Virus record (IMG/VR): IMGVR_UViG_3300033983_000012
Span: 1-55,815 of that record
DNA length: 55,815 bases
Reading direction: 5' to 3' (one strand)
Source: a virus
Taxonomy: Duplodnaviria; Caudoviricetes
Shown here: piece by piece, positions 7,329-32,948 of the stretch
Layout: each line of letters opens with the position of its first letter
Position numbering within the stretch: position 1 is the first letter of the stretch
Made by a program: the position numbers and the translations under genes
Notes under the pieces: generated by a model
Databases searched by the model: none
What the model was told of the DNA's origin: nothing
What the model saw: only the letters and a program-made list of their open reading frames with translations

Positions 7329-8072
7329 CTACGCGTTGCTGGCGAGTTGGTAAATCACCCAGACTTCGATTTGCCCGGCAGTGAGCGGGCCGGTCGCGAT
7401 GGTCACCGAGATCTGGCCAGCAGCCGACATCTTGAACGGCGTGGTGGTGCAGGTCGGCTTGACCACGGCATCGAGCGAGAGGCTCGCAATAGCCGTCGCC
7501 GTCAGAATCGAGTTGTTCGCCGATCCCGCCGTCGTGCCGATCGCCACCGTCGCGTTTCCGGCCGCCGTGGGGGCCACGGTCGAGTTGATGACGCCGCCAT
7601 GCACCACCGCCTTCGCCGGAATGGTGTCCGATTGGGCCGGCGTGCAACTTACCCCGCCGTCCACGGTGTAATCGTAGAGCGCGTGCGCCACGCGCAGCCC
7701 GTTGACCTGGCCGGAGAATCCCGGCACGCCGAACAGCCTGACGCGCACGGTCGCATCGCCGGAAGCTCCTCCGAGCGCGTCCGTCCCGCTGGCCTGGTCG
7801 AGGGTCGCCTGGCCGATCAGCAGGTTGCTGCCGACCGTGCTGGTGGCAGCCTTCGCCACGTTGTCCCAGTAGACCAGGTCGCCGGAGGCGAAGGTGCTGC
7901 TGTCTTTGGCGAGATCGAACACGCCTTCCAGGACGATCTCGCTTGAGTCGCCCTGAGCTTGATTGTTGACTGCGACACCGAAAATGTTTCCGACGCGGCA
8001 GCCGGCGCCACTGGTGAGTACGTAGGGCGCCAGAACGGTGAGGGTTGCCCCTCGTTGCACGAAGTTGATCAT
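7329..8072 (-). CDS. DUF2190-like capsid cement/decoration protein with extra C-terminal beta domain
   Basis: MINFVQRGATLTVLAP...GVFDLAK...GDLVYWD...VRVRL is the DUF2190 signature; about 125 further beta-rich residues follow. ATG 8072 has AAGGAG RBS; directly after the capsid gene. Confidence 0.85.
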   Translation of the reverse strand: MINFVQRGATLTVLAPYVLTSGAGCRVGNIFGVAVNNQAQGDSSEIVLEGVFDLAKDSSTFASGDLVYWDNVAKAATSTVGSNLLIGQATLDQASGTDALGGASGDATVRVRLFGVPGFSGQVNGLRVAHALYDYTVDGGVSCTPAQSDTIPAKAVVHGGVINSTVAPTAAGNATVAIGTTAGSANNSILTATAIASLSLDAVVKPTCTTTPFKMSAAGQISVTIATGPLTAGQIEVWVIYQLASNA

Positions 8073-8150
8073 GTGAGTTGGTTCTCCTTTTCTCTTTTTA
8101 CGGGGCGGCGATTTGTTCACCGCCCCGTGATTGTCCCGCCTAGCTGCGCA

Positions 8151-10823
8151 CTACGCAGCGCCGTTGCTCCGCTGAATGCCGCGGTAGTCGATTGCCGCGG
8201 CGCCGAAATCGTGACGCGCCTTGATCTCGATGCCATCGACATCGAAGCCCTGGCGAGTCTCCATGAACACGCCCTCCTGACCTTCCAGGAACGCGTATTC
8301 CAGCCCGGCCACGTCCGCGGGGTCGGCGAACAGATACCAAGCCGTCGCGCCATAGGTCGCTAAGGCGTCGAGGCGCGGCTCCACGACCGGAACCAGGGAG
8401 CGCACCCACACCGGGACGCCCGCAGTCAGCGCTGTGACCGCCAACTGCATCGGGTAAATGGTCTGCTCGACCGTGGTTTCGAGCGCGGTCCCCGTGACGA
8501 GGTAGCGCGGCGTGAGATTGAGGGGCGTGCCCTGCGGGCCAGTCTGCTGGCGGAAGAGCGTCCGCCCGGTGGCGAGGGACGCCACGGCGAAAGCCGAGGG
8601 AGCGCCTGTCTGGAAGTTCTTGTGGCCAGCGGCGAATAGCGCCACCGAGGTCTTGTCGCCCATATACACCGCAGAGGGGTTGGCCAGCACGATACCCCAG
8701 ACGACATCCGATTCCATTCTGGAGGCCGCCACACCGAGTTCCGCCGGCACGCGCGTGAATGCCTGGAGATCATCGTTGATGATCGTCTTGCGCGTGAGAG
8801 CCACCACCTCGCCATAGGTCGCGAGCGAATAGTTGACGTTTCCGTCCGTCAGAATGGCGCGGTGGTACTCGCCTTTCTCGTTCAGCCTCGGCAGCGCCGC
8901 CAAATCCGAGAGGAAGGCGCGGTTGATCGGCTTGAAATCGGGCGCCGTCACTTGGCGGGCCAGCGGCCGGAAAGTCTGCGGGTACGCCTGGTAAGCCGGG
9001 ACCAGGGTCTTGTTGGCGACGTTGGCCAGGATGTTGGGGAAATCCGAAGTGGATTCGGCGCCGCCGCCCTCGAACAACTCGAACGAGGCGCGCGGAACTT
9101 TGGGGACGAGCGCCTTTGCCGCGATCTCGTTCGGCCCCATGCCGCGGGTCCTGACGCCGCAGACTTCCAGGTACTCCCGCGCCATCTCGATGAGCCGCAA
9201 GCCGCGAAACTGCTTGCCCAGGTCGAGCTGCCGGCGCGTCTCCGCGGACACCTCCGCGCCGCGGGTCGGACCGAAGAAGTCCGCCCGGTGGCGCAGCAAC
9301 AGGGCGGCCGTCATCTGCTGGCCGAACGTTTCCTGCTGATCGCGCGTGATGGAGAGCTCGGTCCTGACATCGACCCGGTGGCCGCCCACCCCGCGGCTCC
9401 CCTGCTTCTCGATTTCCTGGAGAATGCTGGCCCTGGCCGCATCGAGCGTCGTACCGGTGTCGATCAGCCCGTCCAGAAACTCCGTGGTAATGCCGTGCTT
9501 CAGATGCGGAGTCCCGATGGTGCGGATTTCGCTGGCGGCGGTGAACTTGGCTTCCGCCTCCTTCACTGTTGCGCCCGATGCGATCAGCGTGGCCCCGAGT
9601 TTTTGGCATTTGAAGTTGGTTGCCAGCGTGGTGATTTCGGCCACCCGTTGGCGCTCCAACGTCGCTCCCTCGGTGCGCGCCGCATCGAGTACTGCCTGAT
9701 TGTTACGGGCTTCCGCGCCCGTCTGAGTCGTCTCTTCCATGACGGTTCTCTCCTGATTTGGGCTGGTTGCCCGTCGTCCGTCCGCTCCCAACGCGGACAG
9801 AAATTGAGTAGAAAAATCGGCAGGCACCGTGATCGCCGAGACCTCGAAAGGCTCCCAATCGGTAGCCTCGAAGACCGGCGCCTGCTTGCCGCTCGGATGA
9901 GGCGCCATCGTGCCGTTGCCGTTGGCGTCCTTGACCGGCTGCTTGCTGTAGATCCACGTTCCGAAACTGAGATTTCGGATACGCCCGGAGGCGATGCCGG
10001 ACCAGAGTTGGTCTGTGTCCTTGTTCTCGCCTTCGACTCCGAATTGCAGTGTTGCTTTCCCCGCCGCTCCATCGGCCCAGGCTTTGACCACGGAGCCGCG
10101 CTGCGCCTTCGCGCCGGCTTGGTTCGCCACGATGGATTTGAAATCCGTACCCGTCATGTGGCAATCGAAGACCGGGGCGCCGGCGTTCAGGCGCGCCATG
10201 CGGCAGCCCGCCATATTGAGCCGGAGCATGTAATCCGTGTCCGTTTCGGCATCGTAGCGGGGCACGGTCTGTCCGCCGTACCAGACCACATCGACCGTGC
10301 GATTCTTGTCGTCCGCGCTCTGCGGAGCAAAGCTGATCTCATCGTGGGACGCAGAGAAAAGCTCGCCCTGAAAGATCGTCTCTCCGCCGCCTTGCGCGCC
10401 GGCCTTGAGGTCCGGGGCATCCTTGCCCGCGTCCTTGTAGTGCGCCGCAAGGTGCGCATGGACACCTGCCTTGTCTGGGGCCGGAATGTCGAGGCCGCCC
10501 CCGTTCAGCCGCCCCATCGCGGCTGCGCAGCCCGCCATGTTCGCGGCGCCCACCTTGCCGTCCGCAGAGACGTCGTGATGGGGGAGTTTGTAGGCTCCCT
10601 TTGTGGCCGCGTCCTTTGATGGGTCCACCCAGGCGTGCATCGCGCGCAGCGCGTCTTTTGATGGACTGTCGCCCAGGCGCTTCAGGTTCGCCCCGGCATC
10701 CCAGGCGCCGTCTTTATCGACGGCCGTGTGATGGACGCCGATGGCCCCCAATTCCTCCAGCGTCATCCGCGAGACAATCCCGTTAATCTCTGCGCCGGTC
10801 ATGTTCGTGTGCAGTAGTGCCAT
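8151..10823 (-). CDS. Fused prohead protease / scaffold / major capsid protein (HK97 fold) with extra N-terminal domain
   Basis: 890 aa. Protease motifs RLNAGAPVFDCH, IRNLSFG, DWEPFEVSAITVPAD; coiled linker; capsid motifs STSDFPNILANVANK, LTRKTIINDDLQAF, GFDVDGIEIKARHDFGAAAIDYRG. Confidence 0.95.
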   Translation of the reverse strand: MALLHTNMTGAEINGIVSRMTLEELGAIGVHHTAVDKDGAWDAGANLKRLGDSPSKDALRAMHAWVDPSKDAATKGAYKLPHHDVSADGKVGAANMAGCAAAMGRLNGGGLDIPAPDKAGVHAHLAAHYKDAGKDAPDLKAGAQGGGETIFQGELFSASHDEISFAPQSADDKNRTVDVVWYGGQTVPRYDAETDTDYMLRLNMAGCRMARLNAGAPVFDCHMTGTDFKSIVANQAGAKAQRGSVVKAWADGAAGKATLQFGVEGENKDTDQLWSGIASGRIRNLSFGTWIYSKQPVKDANGNGTMAPHPSGKQAPVFEATDWEPFEVSAITVPADFSTQFLSALGADGRRATSPNQERTVMEETTQTGAEARNNQAVLDAARTEGATLERQRVAEITTLATNFKCQKLGATLIASGATVKEAEAKFTAASEIRTIGTPHLKHGITTEFLDGLIDTGTTLDAARASILQEIEKQGSRGVGGHRVDVRTELSITRDQQETFGQQMTAALLLRHRADFFGPTRGAEVSAETRRQLDLGKQFRGLRLIEMAREYLEVCGVRTRGMGPNEIAAKALVPKVPRASFELFEGGGAESTSDFPNILANVANKTLVPAYQAYPQTFRPLARQVTAPDFKPINRAFLSDLAALPRLNEKGEYHRAILTDGNVNYSLATYGEVVALTRKTIINDDLQAFTRVPAELGVAASRMESDVVWGIVLANPSAVYMGDKTSVALFAAGHKNFQTGAPSAFAVASLATGRTLFRQQTGPQGTPLNLTPRYLVTGTALETTVEQTIYPMQLAVTALTAGVPVWVRSLVPVVEPRLDALATYGATAWYLFADPADVAGLEYAFLEGQEGVFMETRQGFDVDGIEIKARHDFGAAAIDYRGIQRSNGAA

Positions 10824-10834
10824 GGCTGCTCCTT

Positions 10835-11314
10835 TCAGGCCTTCACGGCCTCATAGTCTTTCTCGCCGAACTCCGCGAGTTGCCAGTCCTGTTTCTGCAG
10901 CCAGGCGAGGTGGCCCTCGTTTCCGTTGCCGCCGCGGCGATGCCATTTGATGAGGTGCTGGTAGAGGTGAAAGACGTCAATCTCGCCAGCGTCGTAGGCC
11001 TCCTTGCAGAGCACCGAATACCGCGCCACCAGCGCCTGCTCCGCGGCCATCGCGTCTGTTTGGATGGAGGTAACAGTGGCATGCGTGGCTGCCGGTTTCG
11101 GCGCAAACGCGGGCGTGCCATCAAGGAACAACATGGCGCTGGCCAGGTCCTTCGCGTAGTCCTCGCACTGCTCATGCAAGGTCTTCAGGCCATCTGCGAT
11201 GCTCAGCCCGAAGCGCTTCACGTTGCGCTGATCGAGCAGGTATTGCAGCATCAGCGTCATTTCGAGATTGATGGCCTCCTGCAAACCGGCCAGGACCTTC
11301 GGATCACCTTTCAT
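10835..11314 (-). CDS. bfr: Bacterioferritin-like protein (degenerate ferroxidase centre)
   Basis: 159 aa from ATG 11314 (RBS AAGGAG). MKGDPKV...LE...QYLL...FGL...LFLDGTP...AAEQ...EGHLAWL...FGEKDY aligns along its length with bacterioferritin (MKGDTKV...QYFLH...LFLEGLP...EEGHIDWL). Confidence 0.88.
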   Translation of the reverse strand: MKGDPKVLAGLQEAINLEMTLMLQYLLDQRNVKRFGLSIADGLKTLHEQCEDYAKDLASAMLFLDGTPAFAPKPAATHATVTSIQTDAMAAEQALVARYSVLCKEAYDAGEIDVFHLYQHLIKWHRRGGNGNEGHLAWLQKQDWQLAEFGEKDYEAVKA

Positions 11315-11343
11315 TGGTTTAACTCCTTGTTCGGTTGTTACTC

Positions 11344-11457
11344 TCAGCGGCAAGCATGGAGCAACGTTGGATCGTTCCACACAAGCAAACCCGTCACCGC
11401 GCAGGCAAAAACAATCGCCATGATGATCGGCTTATAAGTGCTCCAGAAATCCATCAT
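11344..11457 (-). CDS. 37-aa single-pass membrane peptide
   Basis: MMDFWSTYKPIIMAIVFACAVTGLLVWNDPTLLHACR; starts 14 nt after the portal stop with a purine-rich RBS. Confidence 0.6.
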   Translation of the reverse strand: MMDFWSTYKPIIMAIVFACAVTGLLVWNDPTLLHACR

Positions 11458-11471
11458 CTTTGTCGTCCCTT

Positions 11472-13196
11472 CTACGTGAGATACGTCCTTGTGGCGCTCC
11501 CCCAATCGCGATCGGCGCGCGCCGATGAGCCCGCGACCAGAAGCTCCTTGACCATCGCCAGGTCCTCTTCCGAGAGGGCGGCCAACCCTTGGCTCTGTTT
11601 GCTGCCCGCGACCGCCTTGCTGCTGGGCGTGCGCTCCTCTGTGGCGGCCGGCTGCTCCTGGCCGCGCAGCGTGACGTTGCGCGGATCGCAATCGAGGATG
11701 ATTTCGAACCTGTCCACGAGCTTGTTGAAGAGCGCAATCTGGGCGAGTTGGGCGTTGGGATCGAAGCCATTTTCGAGGACGGCCTCGAACCACGTCTTCC
11801 GGCCCATGCGGACGTCCTTCAGCGCGGCCTCGGCGTCCTTCACCGGATCCACCGATTCGAACCGCGGGGCAGTCCACTGGGTGGCATACAGGTTGAGCTT
11901 CGGATCCTCCACCGCGCGCGCTGGAATCTTGCCCAGGAGGACCAGGAGGTCGATCACGCGGCGCCGCACTGGCATGCAGACCATGGGGATCAGCGTCAAC
12001 CAGCGGTAATTCTCGATGGTATTGCGGAAGCCCAGCATGCCACCGCGCCACGAGGAGAAGTTGACCTTCGACATGTCGCCGGTGCCGAGCTCGTAGGGAA
12101 CACCGAGGCCTGCCATGATCCCTTCAAGTTCGGTGGTCTTGTAATCGCGGTAGCCGCCTGCCGCTTGCGGGGTGTTGAACTTCACATCCTCACCAGGCTT
12201 GAGGTAGGACACCATGCCGGGCTGGAAGCTCTCCACTGGATGACTCGTAAGCGGATCGGTTCCCTTGTATCCCATCCACGATCCCTCGATGCCCTCCGCC
12301 TGCGTAATCATCGCCACCATGCAGGCTTCGATCTTCTTGCGAACCCGTTCCGCATCGCAGTAATCGTCCAGGTCGCGGAGCGCCAGCATGACCGGCGCCA
12401 GCCAGGGCACGCCACGCACCTGGCCTGGCCGGAGCACGCGATAGGCGTGCAGGATTTGGCTGGCCGGCACCGGCTGGCTCACAATGCCGCCGCGCGGATT
12501 GAGAATCAGGACGCCGCCGGGATGATACGTGTAGATCCAGTACGCCACCCGGCGCCCCAATAGATCGAACTGCACGCCCTGCATGACGTGACCGTTGACC
12601 GTTCCCATCGTGCGGAATTGATCGAGGAAATCCGCCTCGAGCAACTGGAGTTGCAGCGGCACGCGCAAATTGTCTTCCGTGAGCCGCGGCCGGAACCGCA
12701 GGACAGCCTCGCCACTCTCAGCCATGGTCCGCATGACCAATGCCTGCATCCCGTAGAAGTCGAGACGTTGCGGCGTGTCGCACTGCTCGACGAAGTAAGC
12801 CCATTCGGTATCGATGGTCTTGTCAATTCCGGCGTCGCCCGTCTTTGCCTGCGGGACGATCCCGGTCCCGACCGCGTTTCCCGCCAACTCCTCGACCGCT
12901 TTAACCGCGTAGGGATTATTGCGGGTCAGTTCGCGGCTCCGGTTGCGAAGCCACACCAGCGATCCCATCAACTCGACGTTGGCGTCCGAGGATGGGGCGT
13001 ACCAGCCATGAGTGCGGCGGCCGGCCGATGCTCCGTCATAGCTGAACCGTTGAGCGTGGCGGTCCATGTACTCCGAGACCAATTGCGCCCTCATGCGCTG
13101 TACGGTCATCGGTTGCGGCACGGACCAGTCGCGGCGCAGGACTGGCAGACGGGAGGCCGCGGGCAATACTTCGGGCGTGAGGGTGTCAGAAGTCAT
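11472..13196 (-). CDS. Portal protein, lambda family
   Basis: LRNRSRELTRNNPYA, LQLQLLEADFLD, RPGQVRGVPWLAPV, NFSSWRGG, VDPVKD motifs. Confidence 0.96.
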   Translation of the reverse strand: MTSDTLTPEVLPAASRLPVLRRDWSVPQPMTVQRMRAQLVSEYMDRHAQRFSYDGASAGRRTHGWYAPSSDANVELMGSLVWLRNRSRELTRNNPYAVKAVEELAGNAVGTGIVPQAKTGDAGIDKTIDTEWAYFVEQCDTPQRLDFYGMQALVMRTMAESGEAVLRFRPRLTEDNLRVPLQLQLLEADFLDQFRTMGTVNGHVMQGVQFDLLGRRVAYWIYTYHPGGVLILNPRGGIVSQPVPASQILHAYRVLRPGQVRGVPWLAPVMLALRDLDDYCDAERVRKKIEACMVAMITQAEGIEGSWMGYKGTDPLTSHPVESFQPGMVSYLKPGEDVKFNTPQAAGGYRDYKTTELEGIMAGLGVPYELGTGDMSKVNFSSWRGGMLGFRNTIENYRWLTLIPMVCMPVRRRVIDLLVLLGKIPARAVEDPKLNLYATQWTAPRFESVDPVKDAEAALKDVRMGRKTWFEAVLENGFDPNAQLAQIALFNKLVDRFEIILDCDPRNVTLRGQEQPAATEERTPSSKAVAGSKQSQGLAALSEEDLAMVKELLVAGSSARADRDWGSATRTYLT

Positions 13197-13637: not shown

Positions 13638-13898
13638 CTACCAATGCCCCCATCCCGGAAACCCCGGGCCACAGGGGCCATCCCCCCGCCTGGTTTGCCC
13701 CAAAGTGGACTTGCTCGCGTTGCTCCCGCCGTAGGTGCGAATCCCGTCCTCGATATCAGCCTTGGCGAGGCGAAGCTCTTGCATAGTCCTATACGTCACC
13801 TGGCGGCCATCGGGGAACCGCACGCTCAACACTGCGCTGCCGATTGCCGTGTTGATCGCGTCTAGGTTGGCCTGAAGTTGTGCGAGCGAAAGTGCCAT
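13638..13898 (-). CDS. Head-to-tail joining protein, gpW-like
   Basis: LDAINTAIGSAVLSVRFPDGRQVTYRTMQELRLA; between TerL and portal. Confidence 0.88.
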   Translation of the reverse strand: MALSLAQLQANLDAINTAIGSAVLSVRFPDGRQVTYRTMQELRLAKADIEDGIRTYGGSNASKSTLGQTRRGDGPCGPGFPGWGHW

Positions 13899-13901
13899 GG
13901 G

Positions 13902-15932
13902 TTATCCCAGCCAGTTGGTCACGTCGAAGCGGCCGATATACCGCGGCTGCCGCTGTTGCTGCTGCTGTGCTTCCACCGGCTGTGGGGCGGTTTCGGCCGG
14001 CGGCGATGGCGCTGTCGCCTGTTGCTCCTGTGTCCGCAGGGCGGCGTAATCGGGGCCTTTCTTCTGTTGCGTTGACGCTGCCGCCGGCAACGTCTTCACA
14101 TTCAGCAGACTCTCCAGATGCGCCCATTGCGCTTCCCCGAAGCGGTCAATTCCCAACACGAAGGCGCCGGCGCGCGCGTAGTTCGCACAATCGAGCGCTT
14201 CGTGTCTACGGTTCTCGATCGGCTCCCAGTGGTACTTCCGGACGCCGCCCTTTCGGACGCTCAGCCTGAATTCCTCGGAGGTCAACTGCCGGTAGAACTC
14301 TTCGGGGGCATCGATCGGGAAATGGACCCACCCCGCCGGGTACGGATCGCCGGGCGCCGGCCGCTCGCGGTTGAGTTGCGCATACAGCTCCTGCTTCGCC
14401 ATCGAGACGTTGACCGGCCAGAGTTTGCAGCCGTGGGTGATCTTTCGGCCTCGGACTGTGAGATCCACCAGCCTGGGTGGGTCCACCAGCGCCCGGCCAG
14501 TGGGGCGGCCATCCACAGCCAGCACGCGCGAGGAGCCGTGCCGCTTGGAGAAGGCATAGACCTCGTTGCCGGCAAAACCGGAGTCGATGCACATGCGGAC
14601 GATGCTCAACTCGGCACCGGAGGGATGGCGGTAAGTCTGCTGAAGCTTTGCCTCGAGTTGCTCCCACGCGCCCGGCTCAAAGGGCGATTGGTCGATGCGC
14701 CACCAATCCACGAGCCAGCGCTGGCGATTCCTGCCCCATCCCCAAACGTAGCCTTCGAGCCATGTCTTCTGGACATCCGCACCCGCCGTCAGGAATAACA
14801 CGCCGTCGGGAACCTCACCGAGCGAGTAATCTTCTTTGCGGCCCATCAGCTTCTCGTAGTCCGGCGGAGCCTCCCCGGGCTCGCGCCAGGTCTCAGCCAG
14901 GGTGTTGTTGACGAAGACTCGCAACTTTTCTGGGTGACCCTGCGCTGGAATCCAGCCCTCATCGGCGTCAGTCACCACCTTGCCCCAGGCCCAGTCCGGG
15001 GAATAGAGCCGGGAGATTCGGAAGCCGGGATACTTGCCATCCGGGTTCGTCGCGCGCCACTCGCCAGCCCGCAGCATTTCCAGTTTGCGGTGATGGGGGA
15101 TAAGCCCATGGCATCCTGCGCATTGGTATATAGCCGCTTCCGGCTCGATGTACTGGCCGTCGACGTCGCCCCATCGAACGCCAGAATCGGGAGACGGCCT
15201 CCACTCCAATGCCTGCATCTCTCCGCACAGCGGGCAGGGCACGAAGTAGAGCCGCTGGTCGGAGAGTTCGAACGCTGCGGCGATCCGGCTCCGGCCTTCG
15301 GAGGTCGGGGTTGAGCATTTGACGATTTTGCGATTCCAGAACTTCGAAGTGCGCGCGGCGGCCAGTGAAACCGGATCGCCATCGCGGGTGTCTTCGTAGC
15401 CATCGATCTCATCCAACAGCAGGTAGCGCACTGAGCGGCGGCGCAGACCGCGGGAGGATACCGTGCCGGTGAGCGCGATAGACCCGCCGTTGAAGCGCTT
15501 CTGCAGGATGGTGTTGCCCGCATCACGAGATTTCGCCTCGTGGACCTTGCCTCGCAGACACGGCAGGTCGCGCAGCATGGGTGCCACGCGCTCCGCAGAG
15601 AAAGCCTTGGCGTCGGCCTCGTTGGGCTGGACGATCAGGACCGGCCCCGGCTCGGCGTCGATCACGTAGCCGAGCAGGATCATCATGAGGAGCGTCTTCA
15701 TCATCTGGGCGCCACACATCAAACACATAGTTTCCGCCGGGTTCGAAGGACCGAGGACGTCAAGCGGCTCGATCTGGTACGGGTACGGCACAAAATCCCC
15801 GGTCGTACCCGCGTAGTCCGAACTGAGCACGAACTTCTTTCGCGCCCATTCCGAAAGCAGCAGGATCGGCGGCGGAAGTAAGGCATCGGCAAGCGCATCA
15901 CGCAGCCCTTGAAGCGGAGCGGATTCCATCAC
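13902..15932 (-). CDS. terL: Terminase large subunit, lambda GpA family
   Basis: PYQIEP, AQMMKT (Walker A variant), LLLDEID, STPT, FVPCPLCG, LTAGADVQ, MCIDSG, HEALDCANYA. Confidence 0.97.
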   Translation of the reverse strand: MMESAPLQGLRDALADALLPPPILLLSEWARKKFVLSSDYAGTTGDFVPYPYQIEPLDVLGPSNPAETMCLMCGAQMMKTLLMMILLGYVIDAEPGPVLIVQPNEADAKAFSAERVAPMLRDLPCLRGKVHEAKSRDAGNTILQKRFNGGSIALTGTVSSRGLRRRSVRYLLLDEIDGYEDTRDGDPVSLAAARTSKFWNRKIVKCSTPTSEGRSRIAAAFELSDQRLYFVPCPLCGEMQALEWRPSPDSGVRWGDVDGQYIEPEAAIYQCAGCHGLIPHHRKLEMLRAGEWRATNPDGKYPGFRISRLYSPDWAWGKVVTDADEGWIPAQGHPEKLRVFVNNTLAETWREPGEAPPDYEKLMGRKEDYSLGEVPDGVLFLTAGADVQKTWLEGYVWGWGRNRQRWLVDWWRIDQSPFEPGAWEQLEAKLQQTYRHPSGAELSIVRMCIDSGFAGNEVYAFSKRHGSSRVLAVDGRPTGRALVDPPRLVDLTVRGRKITHGCKLWPVNVSMAKQELYAQLNRERPAPGDPYPAGWVHFPIDAPEEFYRQLTSEEFRLSVRKGGVRKYHWEPIENRRHEALDCANYARAGAFVLGIDRFGEAQWAHLESLLNVKTLPAAASTQQKKGPDYAALRTQEQQATAPSPPAETAPQPVEAQQQQQRQPRYIGRFDVTNWLG

Positions 15933-16663: not shown

Positions 16664-18046
16664 TTACCTTCCACGCTGCGCGACCCACCGAGCCAGTCGC
16701 TTCAAGGAGAAACGGGATTCGGACGCAGGGGCAACGGAGGCGTCTGCTGCGTCGGCCTCCGCCACCACCTCCGGAACGCGCGCCGCCGCCACTTCCTCAA
16801 ACGTGCGCCCATCGCCGTCGAGCGTGGCCCGCTTCCCCGTAAGCTTCTGCCAGCGCTCAATGATCACGTCCACGAACGCGGGCGAGATCTCCATGGCGCA
16901 GCACGTCCGCCCCAACTGTTCCGCGGCAACGACTGCTGTGCCGCTGCCGGCGAAGGGTTCGTAGATGAGATCGCCCGGCACGGTGTGATACTGGATCGGC
17001 CGCGCGAAGATCTCGATCGGCTTCTGCGTCGGATGGACGCCCGTCACACCATCCTCGATCTTGCTTTCGATCTGCCACACAGACCGGGCATCCGCCGGCG
17101 GCCGGCGCGCGGGCTGCTTGCCTTTGATCCAGCCATAGAAGCATGGCTCGTGCTGCCACATGAAGTGCGAATAGGTCAGGACGGCGCGGCTCTTGAACCA
17201 GATGATCTGCTGATGGACCTGAAAGCCGCACGCCCGCATGGCGGACTCCAGATCCGACTGGCGCGCAGAAGCATGCCAGATGTACCAGGCGGCGTTCGGG
17301 AGGGCGGCTTGATTGATCGCTGTCTGGATGAACAGCTTGAAGAACTGAGGCGCGTTCTCGATTACGTCCCAGTATTGATCCGACCAGTTCTTGTCGCGCT
17401 CGTTCTTGGTGGCCTTGGGACCAGGGTGCTCGCCGCCCTTGTAGCTCACAGCGTAAGGCGGATCGGTGGCCACCAGCACTGCGCGCCTCGAGCCGCACAA
17501 GCGCTTGACGTCCACCACTGATGTCGAATCGCCGCACAAGAGGCGATGACGCCCGAGCAGCCACAGGTCTCCAGCGACGCTCACCGGGTTCTTGGGCGGT
17601 TCCGGCGCGGCGACATCGATCACTTCCTCGCGTTGCGTCGCCGCCGCGATTGCCGTGTCGATCTCTCGAACGTCGAATCCAGTCAGGCTCAAATCCAACT
17701 CCATACCCTTCAGATCGAGCAGCTCCGGTCCGAGGAGCGCTTCATCCCACGTCGTCTCATCGTGGCTCCGGTTGTCGAGCAGTCGGTATGCCCGGGCCTG
17801 CGCCGGCGTCAGATTCTCGGCGACGTGGACCGGCACCACATCGAGCCCGAGCTTTCTCGCCGCCAGGAGCCGCGTGTGCCCGACGATGATCACACCTTCG
17901 CGGTCCACTACGATGGGCTGGCGAAATCCGAACTCCTTGATGGAGGCAGCAACTTTGTCGACGGCCGCGGCAGAGATTTTGCGAGGATTTCGCGCGTAGG
18001 GAATCGGCCGGTCTATCGGCCAGAGCTCGACCTGGATTTTGTCCAC
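16664..18046 (-). CDS. ParB-like domain / N6-N4 DNA methyltransferase fusion
   Basis: PYARNPR...EFGFRQPIVVD...GHTRLLAA; HRLLCGDST; TDPPY; HPTQKP; EPFAGSGT. Confidence 0.95.
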   Translation of the reverse strand: MDKIQVELWPIDRPIPYARNPRKISAAAVDKVAASIKEFGFRQPIVVDREGVIIVGHTRLLAARKLGLDVVPVHVAENLTPAQARAYRLLDNRSHDETTWDEALLGPELLDLKGMELDLSLTGFDVREIDTAIAAATQREEVIDVAAPEPPKNPVSVAGDLWLLGRHRLLCGDSTSVVDVKRLCGSRRAVLVATDPPYAVSYKGGEHPGPKATKNERDKNWSDQYWDVIENAPQFFKLFIQTAINQAALPNAAWYIWHASARQSDLESAMRACGFQVHQQIIWFKSRAVLTYSHFMWQHEPCFYGWIKGKQPARRPPADARSVWQIESKIEDGVTGVHPTQKPIEIFARPIQYHTVPGDLIYEPFAGSGTAVVAAEQLGRTCCAMEISPAFVDVIIERWQKLTGKRATLDGDGRTFEEVAAARVPEVVAEADAADASVAPASESRFSLKRLARWVAQRGR

Positions 18047-18868: not shown

Positions 18869-19278
18869 GCCGCGCGCCTGGGGGAAAGGATCGGCGCTGG
18901 AATCCGATCAGGGTTGAATCGATCCTTGGGAAAACGCTCGTTGTCAGGCCAGCGCTCGAACCTGCCACCAGCCCCCTCGCGCTTCAGTATTGTGGGATGG
19001 TTTTCCATCGCCTCCTGGTAGGTGTACTTCAGGCTTTCCCGGCTATACCGAGACTCGCGATAGATCCGTTCCACCTGCTGAGAGATGGCCTTGTTGACCC
19101 GGAGCCGCTTGATGCGGTTCCGCGATCCGATTCCGATCACGCCCTCCTTCGCAATGAGCGCGAGCAGTTGAATCCGATCCATCCGAAGCATTATCCGGTC
19201 GCCCTTCTCGGCTAAAATCTCGACCGGAAAGACCATCGTCGGAAAATAGGCTGTGAGCCGTTTGGCTGAGATTATCAC
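18865..19278 (-). CDS. Hypothetical protein
   Basis: 137 aa, protein-like composition, coupled to the downstream gene. Confidence 0.7.
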   Translation of the reverse strand: MIISAKRLTAYFPTMVFPVEILAEKGDRIMLRMDRIQLLALIAKEGVIGIGSRNRIKRLRVNKAISQQVERIYRESRYSRESLKYTYQEAMENHPTILKREGAGGRFERWPDNERFPKDRFNPDRIPAPILSPRRAA

Positions 19279-19963
19279 GGTAGTCTATCGTCTTTGCGCC
19301 TTTGCGCGAGTTGCACGGACGGCAGAGCGGCTGAATGTTCGAGATGAAGTTCGATCCGCCATGAAGTAGTGGAACCACATGGTCTTTGGTTAGTGTGCCT
19401 TCGATTGCCGTGGCATCCACGCCGCAACACACACAACGAAATCCGAACCGCTTCAGGCAATCCAACCACTCCTTGAGCGTGTGTGACCCCTCGGCGTGAA
19501 GTTCCCGCAGGCGCCGAAGATCCTTGTTTCGCGCGGACTCAATCGCGGCTTCCTTGTGCCGGCAGTATACGCAGCGGTGGTCAACGCCGTCCGCAAAGGT
19601 TGCTCGTTTCGCAAATTGGCTCCGGCTCAACTCGCGGCGGCAGCCGTCGCAGAATTTCTTTTTGTAGTCGCGCAACAGCGCGGAAGCGACTCGCAGGTCG
19701 AACCCCGCCAAGGCGCTTGATTGTGCGATGAAATCGGCGCCCCGGAGTATTCGCACCGCGCGCAGCTTCCCATTCTGAACGATCCCAGAAAACAGCCCCT
19801 CTCCGGAGAGCCTAGACAAAAATCCGATTGGGCTGTGACCGCACGCCTGGCCATTCACGTTCTTAAGGCGCACGCGACCGCCGCGAAGCTGGAAAGGTGT
19901 GAGGTAGAGAGCGATATCGGATTCTGGGACTTCCAGAGATGGCTGTGGCGTCGATGGGCTCAT
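19043..19963 (-). CDS. HNH endonuclease (Zn-finger type), first late gene
   Basis: CDGC...CVYC; HTLKEW...CVCCG...TKDHVVPLLHGGSNFISNIQPLCRPCNSRKG. The last ~78 codons overlap the next gene. Confidence 0.88.
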   Translation of the reverse strand: MSPSTPQPSLEVPESDIALYLTPFQLRGGRVRLKNVNGQACGHSPIGFLSRLSGEGLFSGIVQNGKLRAVRILRGADFIAQSSALAGFDLRVASALLRDYKKKFCDGCRRELSRSQFAKRATFADGVDHRCVYCRHKEAAIESARNKDLRRLRELHAEGSHTLKEWLDCLKRFGFRCVCCGVDATAIEGTLTKDHVVPLLHGGSNFISNIQPLCRPCNSRKGAKTIDYRDNLSQTAHSLFSDDGLSGRDFSREGRPDNASDGSDSTARAHCEGGRDRNRIAEPHQAAPGQQGHLSAGGTDLSRVSV

Positions 19964-23394: not shown

Positions 23395-23995
23395 GCTTCA
23401 CCTCCGGCTCCACGTCGTATTCGAAGGGCTGGTGCTTGCGCGCTGGCTTCAGGAGCGCCTCAGCTTGGCAGTGCGCGCAACCGGCGCCGTCGCAGTGGCA
23501 ACCTGGCCCAGCGGCCAGCAGGGCTTTGACGGCATCGGCGAGCCGGCCGATGGTGCCGAGCAGCCCACGGATGCGCTCCTGATATTCTGCGGGCGTGGGC
23601 GCAGCCGACGCCCGCTCCCAGGTCTCGCGCATGTTGTCGCGCTCGCGCTCTGCCCGCCGGCGGCGCTCCAGCTCGAGGTTGTTGGCATCCAAGAGCGCGC
23701 TCTCGCGGGCGCGAAGCCGGTCCACTTCAGCGGTGAGCTTCTGAATCCTGGCCATGTAGTCGCAGGCTTCCTGCGCTTGCTGCTGGTTCCACGCGGTGAG
23801 GCGGCCGATCTCCGCCTCCAGATTCGTCTGAGCGTCGGAAATTATTCGTGTGACTACGGGCGCTACCCCGTCGTGGAAATCGCGCACCGCGCATGGATCG
23901 TTGAGTATTGCCACGCGGCATGTGCCCAACTGCCTGACGATGCGGGTGCGGATCTCTTCTACCCGATCGGCGACTTGGGAGTGGTCAAGCAGCAT
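23387..23995 (-). CDS. Coiled-coil hypothetical protein
   Basis: 202 aa, heptad-rich, C-terminal CHC...CAHC. Confidence 0.7.
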   Translation of the reverse strand: MLLDHSQVADRVEEIRTRIVRQLGTCRVAILNDPCAVRDFHDGVAPVVTRIISDAQTNLEAEIGRLTAWNQQQAQEACDYMARIQKLTAEVDRLRARESALLDANNLELERRRRAERERDNMRETWERASAAPTPAEYQERIRGLLGTIGRLADAVKALLAAGPGCHCDGAGCAHCQAEALLKPARKHQPFEYDVEPEVKRG

Positions 23996-24422
23996 GGCTC
24001 CTCGCTTTCAGCTTGTTCTTCGCCCGGTGGGCGTCGCGGCAGATTCGGCAATATCTCAGGCCGCGATAGACGTAGGTGTTCTCGGCGTCATAGGGATGGC
24101 CCTGTGGACAGCGGATAGCGGCGGCGTGGCGCGCCGTGATCGTGTCACCGCGGAGTAGATTGACTCGGCGCGTCACGGGCTCCTGATGATCCGGATTGAC
24201 ACACGCCCGAAGCCGACAGGTATGGTCAAGATCGAGTTTTGCATCGACTGGCCCGTGGATCTGCTCGTAGAGCCAACGGTGGGCCTGAAACTGTTGTTTT
24301 CCAACACGGAACCGACCGTACCGGTTCTTCTTGTGAATCTTACCCGTCCACAGCCAGCAACCGCCGGGCACTTTCACAACTCGGGACATGAAACGCGCCA
24401 TGTGATCTGCGAGGGTTTTCAT
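23985..24422 (-). CDS. HNH endonuclease
   Basis: CWLWTG...YG...AHR...LDHTCRLRACVNPDH..N; CPQGH...CRIC. Confidence 0.92.
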   Translation of the reverse strand: MKTLADHMARFMSRVVKVPGGCWLWTGKIHKKNRYGRFRVGKQQFQAHRWLYEQIHGPVDAKLDLDHTCRLRACVNPDHQEPVTRRVNLLRGDTITARHAAAIRCPQGHPYDAENTYVYRGLRYCRICRDAHRAKNKLKARSHAA

Positions 24423-29469: not shown

Positions 29470-29840
29470 GCGTTTGTGTCTCCCTCTGAAATTCGTAGTT
29501 GGCCGGCGATCTCGGCGAGGTCGTGTCGATTCAACAGCACCGATATCCGGACAAGTTCATTTACTGCTTGGCGGCGGAACGGCCGCGCGGCGGCAACGCG
29601 GTCTTCGACAGATTCAGCCAGCCAGAAACCCGCATTCTTTCCCCGGCTGGACCCGATAGGATTCCTGTGGACTAAGATCAGGCGGTTGATGCTGTCAAGC
29701 ACGGCGCGCCGCCGGAGTCCCGTGCGCACGCAGATGATGGACAGCGCCACTGGCCTCGCGCGGCGGTGGGCCTGGATAACACCGAGCACGCGGGCATCGG
29801 CGTCCGTCAAACGAGAGTCGAAGAGAGGAAGCGCGTTCAC
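29466..29840 (-). CDS. Winged-helix DNA-binding protein
   Basis: TGLRRRAVLDSINRL...PIGSSRG..GFWLAES motif. Confidence 0.7.
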   Translation of the reverse strand: MNALPLFDSRLTDADARVLGVIQAHRRARPVALSIICVRTGLRRRAVLDSINRLILVHRNPIGSSRGKNAGFWLAESVEDRVAAARPFRRQAVNELVRISVLLNRHDLAEIAGQLRISEGDTNA

Positions 29841-30562
29841 CGGCAGATCCTCCCATCGGTCACCTCGCGGTTCATTAGCCTATGGGTGTGACTCAGTGAA
29901 ACGCCAAAGGCTTTCCCTGTCTGGCTTAGAGAGTGGCATTGCGCGCGGAATTCTTTCATTGCGGAGATAGTATCGCCGGAAATCACTGGCTTTCCGCGCC
30001 AAAACGATGGTCTCCATAGCCGTATCTTGGCGATGTGTTCCGCTGTGAGCGTTTGCCCCTTTTTGCGCCTACTGATCGCCAGGCAGTGTTGAGGAGAAAA
30101 GATTCGCCCTTTTAGTTTTGCGCTCTTCTTCGCACGGGCTTCCGGCGTGTTCATATGGGCTGTACCGCGCCGTTTGGCTATCATGCTCATCTTTTTCCTG
30201 GTTACCGCCGTTCTTGGGTATCTGAGCTTTTCTCGCGCCTCGCCTACAGGAACCCCGCCCAGGCCTCCTTTCGTGCTGTTGTAGCCGTTGCGTGAATCTG
30301 TTGAATCAAGAAGGATGATCCATATTCGTTCGAGGTTGTCCAGTTCAGTCTCAGGAATATCCGCGGCAAGCAGAGCGACTTCAAAAGCCTCAACGCCATA
30401 TTTCCGTATCGCCCTCGACAGAATGTGGCAACGTCGCCGCGTGACTGCATCGCAAACATGCTGTTTCCAGCGAAGGTCCACAGGTCCGACCGTCCGGCCA
30501 ACGTATACCTTGTCATTGGTCGTATTGCGAATCAGGTAGACCGCTCCTGGCTTCATCTGCAT
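29837..30562 (-). CDS. Free-standing GIY-YIG homing endonuclease with NUMOD3-like repeats
   Basis: AVYLIRNTTNDKVYVGRT...RWKQH...AIRKYG..F...LE..WI...GYNSTKGG; basic repeats; C-terminal HTH; visibly lower GC than flanks. Confidence 0.93.
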   Translation of the reverse strand: MQMKPGAVYLIRNTTNDKVYVGRTVGPVDLRWKQHVCDAVTRRRCHILSRAIRKYGVEAFEVALLAADIPETELDNLERIWIILLDSTDSRNGYNSTKGGLGGVPVGEAREKLRYPRTAVTRKKMSMIAKRRGTAHMNTPEARAKKSAKLKGRIFSPQHCLAISRRKKGQTLTAEHIAKIRLWRPSFWRGKPVISGDTISAMKEFRAQCHSLSQTGKAFGVSLSHTHRLMNREVTDGRICR

Positions 30563-31278
30563 ATGCGACCCTCTGTGATGATGTCGAGGAACCAAAACTT
30601 CTCGACCTTCTTCAGATCGATTTCGTCAGGGCACCGAAAGATGAAATCGCGGACGTCGTCACGCCGAATCCACCAGGCGTTTCCGCCCTGCTGTGGTGTT
30701 CGGTCCTGCTCTCGGCGCTCCGCTTTGAGGGCGCCAGATGCGATCCAGCGGGTGACCTTGTGGTCGTCGATGCCGAAGGCCTCAGCCAGTTGGCGGCCGG
30801 AGTATCCATCGAGCGTCTGCTTGATCCGCTCGCGCTTCATCTTGAGATGCACGGCCGTAGGAGTTCTGTGGAACCCGGCATTCCGCAGTGCGACCACCAT
30901 GTACCTGTCGCTGTGGTGCGCATTGGAGTGCAGAATCCGTTCCTCATCAGAGGTCCATGGTTCGTTCTCAGATGCGCGCGAAAGCCCCAGCTTCTGGGCC
31001 CGCTTCTTGACTGCCCAATGCGGCCAACCGATCCGCGCGGCGCAGGTCTTGATCGCCCGCCGGCTGTTGAACTCCCAGAAGCGCTCGTAGGCTTGGCGGA
31101 TTAGTTCGTCCGTTGCCAGCGTGGGCACATACTTGGCTGGCTTGCCGCGATGCCGTGGCCGGCAGACATCGCACCAACGCGCCCACGGCCGCACGAGCGG
31201 AGTGCCGCAATCGCCACAGAAATGGAGAGCTGCCATGGGCGGAGCCGCCGTGCTCAAGCTCTGCGCTAGGCTACTCAC
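30553..31278 (-). CDS. Zn-finger + HTH putative transcription factor
   Basis: CGDCG...CDVC; VKKRAQKLGL...PWTSDEERIL; LAEAFGIDDHKVTRWIASGALKA; GTG 31278 with GGAGG RBS. Confidence 0.8.
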   Translation of the reverse strand: MSSLAQSLSTAAPPMAALHFCGDCGTPLVRPWARWCDVCRPRHRGKPAKYVPTLATDELIRQAYERFWEFNSRRAIKTCAARIGWPHWAVKKRAQKLGLSRASENEPWTSDEERILHSNAHHSDRYMVVALRNAGFHRTPTAVHLKMKRERIKQTLDGYSGRQLAEAFGIDDHKVTRWIASGALKAERREQDRTPQQGGNAWWIRRDDVRDFIFRCPDEIDLKKVEKFWFLDIITEGRICR

Positions 31279-32469
31279 TGGCAGCCTCCGCGAAGCTCGG
31301 CGTCGGACGTGCGGTGGAAAAGGTTCCCCTGCGGCTTCAGGCAGTATGGACTGAACCAGATCACCTCGCGCCGCGGCGCCTTGTTGCTGTATCCCCAGGG
31401 AGCGCGCCAGTGGTCTTCCGTCCATGCCGCCGGCATCTGATGCTCATCCTCCAAGCCACAGAGCGCAATACGAAGTCGGGGATTGTTTCCGTTCTTAATT
31501 GCCCATGCCCGGACTTCCGCCGCCACGTCATCCTCGATTGAATAGAGCCGGTTGTCGCGGATCGCGTGGGAGTAGGGATGGTCCAGGAGCACTCCAGTGA
31601 GTTGGCCGCCGCCGAGCTTCCATGTGCAACTCGGGGTGACGATGCGGGACCAGTCGCCGCAGCAGACGCGCACGCGCCTGAGGCGCGACGCGAGAGCCTC
31701 CATCCATTCTGTGATGGCGGAATTCTGGGCGCCGCGCTGGTTGCTGCGGGTCATGATCGGAAGCTTTCGATGAACGCCGGTCGACCCGTTGCCACTCAGG
31801 TTCGGGCGCTTCGCATGGATTCCATTGCCCGCATCTCTGATGTGCGGACGGTGCTGCCAGTCGGGATTCTCGGATGCTCGCCGGCGCCGCGGCGCTTTTA
31901 CGTTGCAGACGCCTCGAGCGCCGCGATTCAGCACGGGGCGCTTGTTCTTGCCGTCGAGGTTCCCGGCCCAGGCCGACGCGGAATGGACTCCCATTTCGCC
32001 GTTGAGGTGAATGCTGGCGTTCAGCCCGCGGGGCGCCCGGCCGCCTTGGCCCCTCCCGACCCACTCGGGCCGAGAGCACCAGCCGGCACCGATCCATTGT
32101 GAGATGCCCCACACCCACCAGCCCGCGATCTTGGCGTCGTAGAACTCCGCATCCGCCAGCATCTTCTCGCGGAAGTTCGGCTGTTCGCAGAGCCAATGAT
32201 GTCTCGCCTGCAGGTCCGCCTCATTCACTGGCCAATCTGCGTATTCAGCCACCTGGTCCGGCGCGGCCGTCACCGACCGCCAGAAATTGCTCAAGTAGAC
32301 GTCCCTGTCATTGACCGTTTCAATCCGCGGCTCGTGTGGCCGCGCCAGCAGCACAGCCAGGCTGCCGGCGAAGGGTTCAATGTAATTGCCCACATCGCCC
32401 AGGCGGCTCCAGACCAGCTCCGCCGCGCGTGATTTACCGCCGAAACCAAGGAAAGGGTGCTTTCAACAC
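31275..32469 (-). pseudogene. Dam-like N6-adenine methyltransferase with a +1 frameshift near the start
   Basis: LKAPFPWF / GGKSRAA...YIEPFAGSLAVLL...ETVND. An extra base at TTT-C (32445-32442) breaks the frame; catalytic motif reads DHPY instead of DPPY. Confidence 0.8.
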
Positions 32470-32948
32470 GCTTCCACCTCCCTCGCCGAGCTGCGGCGGT
32501 ATCGCTCGTTGTCCCTGATTCGGCAACACTCTCTGCAGAAACGTTCCCTCTTATGTCCGCGCTTTCGCACGTAAGTGTTCTCAGGGGTAAATGCATGCCC
32601 TCGAAGACAATGTGTTTGCCGCGCGTGTTTGGCGGATTGTGACTCTCCACGCCTGATGTTTTCCAGCGTAGTAACTGGCTCAGCGTGATCCGGATTTACG
32701 CACCAGCGGTTTCGGCAAAGGTGGTCTGGCTCAAGCCCTTCCGGGATTGGGCCCACAAGAATCGTGCGAACGACCCTATGCGCTCGCTGCAGCCTTCCCT
32801 GGTACTGGACAATTCCGTAGCCGTTCGTTTTTGCCGCCGTCCAAGGCCAGCATGGAGTTCTGTATCCCGCCATGATAGGAGCGCCGATTTTAGACGCCAC
32901 TTTTGGAGGCAACAAGCCAAACCAGGGAAAGGGAGCCTTGAGTGTCAT
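32463..32948 (-). CDS. HNH endonuclease fused to the first 11 residues of the Dam-like methylase
   Basis: MTLKAPFPWFG then CWPWT...GYG...AHR...DHLCRNRWCVNPDH..EN; HCLRGH...CREC. Confidence 0.92.
   Translation of the reverse strand: MTLKAPFPWFGLLPPKVASKIGAPIMAGYRTPCWPWTAAKTNGYGIVQYQGRLQRAHRVVRTILVGPIPEGLEPDHLCRNRWCVNPDHAEPVTTLENIRRGESQSAKHARQTHCLRGHAFTPENTYVRKRGHKRERFCRECCRIRDNERYRRSSAREVEAC

Follow-up and report, generated by a model that had tools for sequence, protein, structure and literature searches.

A bacterioferritin-like phage protein family with a remodelled ligand site, encoded between the portal and head protease genes

The IMG/VR record IMGVR_UViG_3300033983_000012 of a peat-soil phage (55,815 bases, rated complete; the whole record is the window analysed here) carries, between the genes for the portal and for a protease-capsid fusion, a gene for a 159-residue protein, P0001, that resembles bacterioferritin (Bfr). 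The protein is a Bfr by fold, not by family definition. Judging from alignments and a tree, it belongs to a phage-specific family descended from Bfr, in which the ligand site has been rewired in a fixed way rather than eroded. The gene is dispensable and exchangeable as a cassette, like a moron-like accessory gene. The data rule out that the gene is an ordinary bfr, that it is a decaying pseudogene, or that its product is an obligatory building block of the head. The explanation to which we assign a probability of about 0.5 is that of an accessory, late-made protein that would keep the Bfr architecture around a remodelled site and handle metal or oxidants.

Fold, family and ligand site

The P0001 sequence is matched by the Pfam Ferritin model PF00210 (E 5.5e-10), and all matches among the sequences of solved structures with E no higher than 0.1 are to chains of bacterioferritin or ferroxidase, the lowest E being 2e-5. 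Dps is represented among these PDB sequence matches by two chains only (E 0.39 and 0.91), and the NCBIfam Dps models do not match P0001. The AlphaFold2 (AF2) model, with a predicted local distance difference test value (pLDDT) of 93.8, has helices at residues 5-34, 39-63, 81-108, 112-126/135-149 and 151-154, that is, a four-helix bundle and a short fifth helix. The best 50 Foldseek matches listed for the PDB are all Bfr or bacterial ferritin, with template modelling (TM) scores of 0.84-0.90; the top superpositions, to Bfr and bacterial ferritin structures, have TM 0.88-0.90 at 17-25% identity. However, the score of P0001 against the NCBIfam Bfr model TIGR00754 is 31.6 bits with the cut-off at 125.55, and four further family members, scoring 36-77 bits, are also below it. 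The canonical database Bfr P0080, which served as the control and as the alignment ruler, scores 186 bits. Since P0001 fails this cut-off, it is not an ordinary iron-storage Bfr; the preliminary description of the window, made from the sequence alone, had likewise considered an ordinary iron-storage gene unlikely.

The search of BFVD yielded no confident structural match at E up to 1e-3 (the best being 1.0e-3), and the ESM Atlas produced generic ferritin clusters only. The weak BFVD matches are uncultured-phage proteins named 'Dps' and 'prohead protease', the latter with E 0.02-0.09 and TM 0.57-0.64. The 'prohead protease' matches may point to fusions of ferritin-like domains with proteases elsewhere, which would be a hint in favour of the cargo reading considered below.

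The di-iron ligands of Bfr are E18, E51, H54, E94, E127 and H130, and the axial ligand of haem is Met52, situated at the two-fold interface. In the numbering of E. coli Bfr, and with the window positions aligned to P0080, P0001 keeps E18, Y25, E94 (its E92) and H130 (its H135), whereas E51 is replaced by Cys50, Met52 by Glu51, H54 by Tyr53 and E127 by His125. The preliminary description had arrived at the same assignments except for E127, read there as replaced by Asn; this was an alignment slip, as the E127 column is that of His125. It had also noticed a Gly-rich loop inserted just before the last ligand helix. The insertion, of about seven residues (126-134), is confirmed; it is situated between His125 and His135, within helix D, which is broken at this point by a beta-hairpin in the AF2 model. 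Relatives without the insertion have H-E/Q-x-H in place of the E-E-x-H of Bfr.

These features were counted in the alignment of 81 distinct phage family sequences. Position 18 is Glu in 75 of them. Position 51 is Cys in 47, Ala in 23, Ser in seven and Thr in four, and Glu in none. Position 52 is mostly Glu (44) or His (26) and never Met, and position 54 is His (38), Phe (17), Tyr (11) or Trp (10). His occupies position 127 in 80 sequences and position 130 in 75. In addition, the residues corresponding to His120, Lys123 and Trp124 of the window protein are found in 81, 79 and 74 sequences, respectively. The exact Cys51/Glu52/Tyr54/Asn127 pattern, the conservation of which had been suggested as a check, is not what the family conserves; the conserved pattern is a small residue at position 51, absence of Met at 52, an aromatic residue or His at 54, and His at 127.

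Compared with Bfr (TIGR00754; PDB 1bcf, 8sqr, 4am2), the phage proteins have the same length, four-helix bundle, short helix E and predicted two-fold dimer formed via helices A and B. They share the N-terminal MKG..V motif, the LFL-E/D-G-x-P loop and the G-E-x-x-Y C-terminus, as well as the equivalents of E18, Y25, E94, H130 and W133. The differences are Cys, Ala or Ser for E51, His for E127, a frequently aromatic residue for H54, the added invariant His120, Lys123 and Trp124 and, in the clade of the window protein, the helix D hairpin. As Met52 is never present, no Met-Met haem is possible in the phage family. Finally, the phage gene, unlike bfr, is encoded in a phage head operon.

There is next to no chance that the gene is a captured host bfr that is decaying and has no function, a reading refuted by the selection and conservation data. 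While the haem ligand and three of the six canonical di-iron ligands have been lost, and one prophage copy has an internal TAG, the ratio of non-synonymous to synonymous substitution rates (dN/dS) is about 0.1 (0.06-0.12) in 14 of 15 gene pairs, with 0.22 in the least diverged pair. Moreover, the new invariant residues are common to the 81 distinct sequences, and the open reading frame (ORF) is intact in 114 of 122 loci, most of the others being cut by contig ends. Since the substitutions are conserved and under purifying selection, they are not the result of decay, which the preliminary description had named as the outcome that would undo its proposal.

The word-indexed search in a collection of 5.8 billion clusters yielded 36 relatives, all of them metagenomic. 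The profile search in 1.84 billion representatives yielded 420 matches at E up to 1e-3; among the best 150 of these, 128 are full-length proteins, of which 36 have the phage-type signature, 64 are canonical Bfr and 28 are other proteins. The phage sequences group together in a quick tree, apart from four canonical Bfrs, with a Shimodaira-Hasegawa-like approximate likelihood ratio test (SH-aLRT) value of 99.

The homodimer model of P0001 has a score of 0.50, the best control scoring 0.00. In calibration, the mark used for this score was reached by 20 out of 30 proteins solved as pairs and by one out of 23 solved as single chains. At least 97% of the contacts are common to the three runs, and the pLDDT of the partner is at least 87. 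The modelled interface consists of helix A (19-34), helix B (51-63) and the loop 66-77, and coincides with the two-fold surface of Bfr; residue 51, where Bfr holds haem, is inside it. As Bfr dimers have already been solved, the likeness to them may explain the passing score, and the model should be taken as a sign of likeness to Bfr, not as proof that two copies bind. Both the loop motif of Bfr and its helix E motif at the C-terminus are found throughout the family, which is consistent with a cage.

The best sequence matches of P0001 in the PDB are subunits of hetero-oligomeric Bfrs (9iig and 9h1u, E 2e-5 and 8e-5; 9bts is another such structure). These provide a precedent for a Bfr-type subunit giving up one of the two cofactor sites. 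However, each of them retains one of the two, the di-iron site or the haem Met, whereas the phage family keeps neither site intact, and the chromosomal partners are encoded with their mate, whereas the phage gene is alone. Another parallel is the L-chain of animal ferritin, a cage subunit in which the di-iron site has been replaced and assembly kept; it is of unrelated origin and has no conserved His cluster at the old site.

An alternative, also raised in the preliminary description, is that the phage protein acts on the Bfr of the host, as a poison or modifier subunit that would co-assemble via the two-fold surface and alter iron storage or release late in infection. Such entry into host cages is possible in principle, as a canonical Bfr scoring above the TIGR00754 cut-off, with all ligands and Met52, is encoded in four out of five prophage-carrying metagenome-assembled genomes (MAGs); the best PDB matches are chains 9iig_M and 9h1u_M of the hetero-oligomers, and the two-fold interface is predicted to be kept. 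Nevertheless, we consider this role improbable. The identity to solved Bfr chains is only about 17-25%, and the model supports a homodimer on its own; with Glu or His in place of Met at the interface, a mixed dimer would be expected to lose one haem ligand. Further, the alleles diverge to 50% with the family signature kept and show no sign of tracking one host partner.

Position in the head operon, dispensability and exchange

In the window, the Bfr-like gene is a full-length ORF with a strong ribosome-binding site (AAGGAG, 8 nt before the ATG), situated between the portal and the protease-capsid genes with its stop 11 nt ahead of the protease-capsid ATG (10823), just as had been described. 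The short membrane peptide described ahead of it corresponds to a hydrophobic 37-aa ORF that recurs in four other loci. The coordinates are given in Table 1.

Relatives of this locus were collected in searches seeded with the Bfr-like protein alone, using the narrower alignment A3, as the broad alignment A2 was too diverse. They yielded 7 + 41 IMG/VR contigs and 8 + 3 MAG contigs, that is, 59 loci with 42 distinct protein sequences; the counts given here include near-duplicates. The upstream ORF could be examined in 55 of the 59 loci and the downstream ORF in 52. A portal gene is upstream in 52 of 55 loci (22 with PF05136, 27 with PF04860, three assigned by PHROG), the exceptions being L015, L042 and L044. 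A head protease gene is downstream in 48 of 52 loci, the exceptions being the same three and L052; 20 of the downstream genes encode protease-capsid fusions, ten ClpP-type proteases, five S49, three S78, seven S78 together with ClpP, and three were assigned by PHROG. In 14 loci the start codon of the Bfr-like gene overlaps the portal stop codon. The portal / Bfr-like / protease order holds across two portal families and four protease types, so that the synteny noted for the window is conserved far beyond its phage.

In the quick tree, the clade with the insertion (49 sequences, support 100) occurs only in contexts with the lambda-type portal and the fusion. One lambda/fusion group is nested among PF04860 contexts, which indicates that the gene has moved between module types.

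Presence or absence of the gene was assessed by a search seeded with the portal instead of the Bfr-like protein. Among 80 contigs in which the portal shares at least 71% identity with that of the window, 63 have the Bfr-like gene and one is too short to judge. In 13 contigs no more than 83 nt separate the portal from the start of the protease-capsid match, with no Bfr-like gene between them, and in three there is a gap of about 300 nt after the portal, also without it. Thus the gene is absent from 16 of 79 evaluable contigs. In the second lineage, with the PF04860 portal and ClpP, the gene is present in eight of ten loci with portals at least 97% identical. The other two loci have an in-frame deletion of about 435 nt, by which the first 17 codons are fused in frame to the ClpP gene. 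In the same lineage, the gene was found in none of 36 evaluable loci with portals at most 76% identical.

The gene is also exchanged between otherwise similar phages. The loci L061-L063 are 99.5% identical to the window in the portal protein and 96% in the protease-capsid protein, but only 53% in the Bfr-like protein. For L062, the corresponding nucleotide identities are 99.1%, 93.8% and 61.7%. The sliding identity to L062 is 98-100% in the flanks, falls to 55-62% between about 11265 and about 10739, and then recovers. In an independent peat sequencing run, X7, contigs match both flanks and diverge between 10750 and 11262.

The Bfr-like gene is the commonest tenant of the portal/protease junction, which is an accessory-gene site. 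Copies of the 37-aa peptide occur in L061-L063 (97% identity) and in L089 (5698-5811; 70% identity), in the latter without a Bfr-like gene after it. It has one hydrophobic span and its own AAGGGA upstream. Two loci carry an extra 0.8-1.3 kb between the portal and the Bfr-like gene (L086:5687-6952 and L102:5675-6446) with no convincing ORF on the operon strand; these inserts may represent an opposite-strand gene or a non-coding element.

Since phages with almost the same head can lack the gene or carry a different allele of it, its product is not an obligatory head building block. A weaker form of the structural reading is that the protein is packaged cargo or an internal head protein, present during assembly as a cage or as dimers in the procapsid or on the portal or protease and then carried along in the virion, where it could guard DNA from iron-driven oxidation. 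In encapsulin operons the cargo gene is followed by the shell gene. As in the case of the ferritin-like encapsulin cargo (Flp/EncB, IMEF), the window gene is a ferritin-superfamily gene directly upstream of the gene for an HK97-fold shell, 11 nt from it, and in the family it stands after the portal and directly before the protease or protease-capsid gene in two portal families and four protease types, with the overlap of start and portal stop codons in 14 loci. However, the gene is dispensable and is swapped among phages with 98-99% identical portals, and an allele 53% identical serves the same head. None of the 81 sequences has an N- or C-terminal extension beyond the Bfr core: in P0001 the C-terminus is about five residues past helix E and the N-terminus starts like that of Bfr. 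Unlike encapsulin cargo, it thus has no targeting-peptide extension, and the encapsulin-cargo models TIGR04535, TIGR04536 and NF058679 do not match P0001 at E up to 0.01. The shell gene here, unlike that of encapsulins, is a phage protease-capsid fusion in a complete packaging operon, and in other clades the next gene encodes a protease only. The apparent fusions of the Bfr-like protein with portal or protease in databases (P0186, portal plus Bfr-like; P0187; P0034; the 795-aa ORF of L016) are read-throughs with out-of-frame linkers and represent frameshifts or assembly errors.

Packaging is therefore, in our estimate, a possibility on the unlikely side, and the suggestion of the preliminary description that the protein is a component of the virion or procapsid is not supported, given the dispensability, the exchange and the lack of an encapsulin-type targeting extension. 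Still less likely is the stronger claim that the family represents natural cargo of a true phage capsid, enclosed together with DNA in the HK97-fold heads of phages of the Acidobacteriota. Were the protein packaged, this would bear directly on the origin of encapsulins from phage capsids. As cargo, it would illustrate in present-day phages how capsids could have evolved into iron-storing encapsulins, and it would be the first case in which a protein of the ferritin type is shown to protect the packaged genome of a virus.

Proposed role of the protein

In the explanation that we prefer, the metal or oxidant role, a Bfr-like dimer would most likely still be built, since the protein retains the bundle of four helices, the short helix after it and the two-fold dimer surface of the Bfr type; the 24-subunit cage would probably be formed as well. 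The haem and the di-iron ferroxidase character of Bfr would be lost with the replacement of E51 by a small residue and of E127 by His and with the disappearance of Met52. In their place, Glu18, Glu92, His125 and His135, together with His120, Lys123 and Trp124, would constitute a remodelled site, probably His-rich and binding a single metal; its geometry is suggested by the alignment and helix periodicity.

The protein would be produced late, alongside the head proteins, because the gene is at the portal/protease junction and lacks its own sigma-70-like promoter. No such promoter was found at 10300-11900 in a scan that is blind to non-sigma-70 promoters; the only terminator-like hairpin that the same scan found on the coding strand is weak and lies within the 37-aa ORF. 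The most likely job, during DNA packaging in the cell late in infection, would be the binding of a metal (iron or some other) or the quenching of oxidants, since no other role makes use of the conserved Glu/His set. It would suit phages of the Acidobacteriota from peat, pond and wetland, which are probably iron-rich habitats. This role also matches the published reasoning on phage Dps-like genes (PMC8008677).

Several points weigh against it. The conserved residues could equally stabilise the bundle without a metal, for example by a buried Lys-Glu pair. The use of the same junction in unrelated portal and protease families is unexpected for a plain metabolic gene and hints at a link to head assembly. 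On the other side, the other passengers of the junction, that is, the 37-aa peptide and the inserts of L086 and L102, may mean that the site is merely permissive. Finally, no relatives were found by tblastn in 50,697 records of cultured phages.

The ferritin fold might also be reused without a metal, in counter-defence, as a small-molecule sponge, or as a chaperone or regulator of the head protease. Some anti-defence loci of other phages show presence/absence and allele exchange at a fixed site, resembling the behaviour of this gene, with its sharp exchange boundaries and fixed accessory site in a structural operon, and both bridging carboxylates of the di-iron site have been lost. At that, the protein has no family match in PHROG or PADLOC, and we know of no sponge or anti-defence protein with the ferritin fold. 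Two Glu and two or three His at the metal-ligand columns in nearly all members are hard to explain without a metal, and we regard a role of this kind as unlikely.

The literature search found no description of a portal / Bfr-like / protease family, although supplementary tables, which are outside such a search, may list genes of this kind. Ferritin-superfamily genes as such have been seen in phages. Dps-like and Mn-catalase genes of gut phages are proposed to limit iron and oxygen damage during infection (PMC8008677). Genes for Bfr have been described in a virus of Bathyarchaeia (PMC10904782) and in a phage of Nitrosospira (bioRxiv 10.64898/2026.05.02.722434), and peptides of host Bfr in a CsCl phage preparation (PMC9206674). 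The phage Dps-like, Mn-catalase and viral bfr genes (PMC8008677, PMC10904782) are similar to the present case in being phage-carried members of the ferritin superfamily. However, they are described as ordinary enzymes, and the passages considered give them no genomic position, whereas in the present family the site is remodelled and the gene occupies a fixed place between those for portal and protease.

Until now, phage genes of the ferritin superfamily have been interpreted as borrowed enzymes of the ordinary kind; the present family as a whole has a rebuilt site. The combination is that of bridging carboxylates and haem ligand gone, a new His/Lys/Trp set fixed, and a fixed address in the genome, while the gene remains optional. 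For protein chemists this would be a redesign of the Bfr metal centre made by nature under strong selection. For phage biologists, it provides natural plus, minus and swapped variants of otherwise identical phages, in probably iron-rich soils.

Features of the window, hosts and samples

All genes examined in the window are on the minus strand. The order of genes in the operon is small terminase, large terminase, gpW-like adaptor, two small ORFs, portal, 37-aa ORF, Bfr-like gene, protease-capsid fusion and cement; the terminase and adaptor genes at 13638..15932 identify it as the head-packaging operon.

Table 1. Coordinates, strand and evidence for features of the 55,815-nt window.
Feature	Position	Strand	Evidence or comment
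Large terminase, gpA type	15932..13902	-	PF05876, PF20454, phrog_15, phrog_2545 (with adaptor)
Head-tail adaptor, gpW-like	13898..13638	-	Pfam and PHROG matches
Portal, lambda family	13196..11472	-	PF05136, E 1.9e-102
37-aa hydrophobic peptide gene	11457..11344	-	Translation; separate accessory gene at the portal/Bfr-like junction
Shine-Dalgarno sequence AAGGAG	11328..11323	-	Read from the sequence
Bfr-like gene, 159 aa (P0001)	11314..10835	-	ORF and translation; PF00210
Gly-rich insertion, codons 126-134 of the Bfr-like gene	10913..10939	-	Alignments; modelled as beta-hairpin
Head protease/scaffold/major capsid fusion, 890 aa	10823..8151	-	PF25209, E 1.4e-51; HK97-type capsid domain at the end
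Head cement/decoration protein	8120..7329	-	PF09956, E 9.7e-19; phrog_122
Exchanged cassette, from about codon 17 of the Bfr-like gene to about codon 28 of the protease-capsid gene	10739..11265	.	Identity to L062 55-62%, flanks 98-100%
Endonuclease and methyltransferase genes	16667-18046, 19046-19963, 23988-24422, 29840-30595, 32466-34870	.	Side observation

The protease-capsid fusion matches phrog_4523, 'major head and protease protein', over residues 159-888 (E 6e-163). Its N-terminal domain of about 150 aa (10376-10823) has no match in Pfam or PHROG. This domain is absent from most relatives, in which the alignment starts at about 152-154, and is present in L004 and L061-L064. Double-protease ORFs of 519-566 aa, which combine ClpP-type (PF00574) and HK97-type S78 (PF04586) domains in either order, are found downstream of the Bfr-like gene in L040, L041, L043, L048, L049, L054 and L055; such an arrangement is unusual.

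The carrier MAGs are labelled Bryobacteraceae, Bryobacterales, Solibacteraceae, Terriglobia, Acidoferrum, Acidobacteria and, in one case, Gemmataceae. Ten out of 11 prophage copies (8 + 3 loci) are in MAGs labelled Acidobacteriota. L013, from a Solibacteraceae MAG, and L014, from the Gemmataceae MAG, have the same portal, Bfr-like and protease-capsid proteins across two phyla, a binning error being a more likely cause than a shared host. With the clade profile, no further prophage copies were found in a sample of 400 other genomes from the phylum to which one carrier MAG belongs. The prophage copy with the internal TAG is in a Terriglobia MAG (G001:C7:1029879-1030355, L199), and a second fragment of the Bfr-like gene is on another contig (G001:C20:18250-18456, L200). 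In the set of Bfr-related loci of the carrier MAGs (L141-L144, L147, L148), the canonical Bfrs score 183-200 bits. At least two carrier MAGs, G004 (L147) and G002 (L148), encode a second Bfr/Ftn-like paralogue of about 70 bits with the usual ExxH motifs, and G001 and G003 have further matches of 57-68 bits.

Sequencing runs containing this stretch of DNA are labelled peat, pond, wetland and viral metagenome, and in a viral-metagenome run there are contigs identical to parts of the Bfr-like gene. The metatranscriptome run X20 contains short contigs of the region at a small share, for which DNA carry-over is possible; one of them has the sequence of an alternative allele next to the conserved gene start.

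No integrase was found among the PHROG matches of the window at E up to 1e-6. Elsewhere in the window there are several homing-type endonucleases (HNH and GIY-YIG) and three or more DNA methyltransferases, including one with a fused ParB-like domain.

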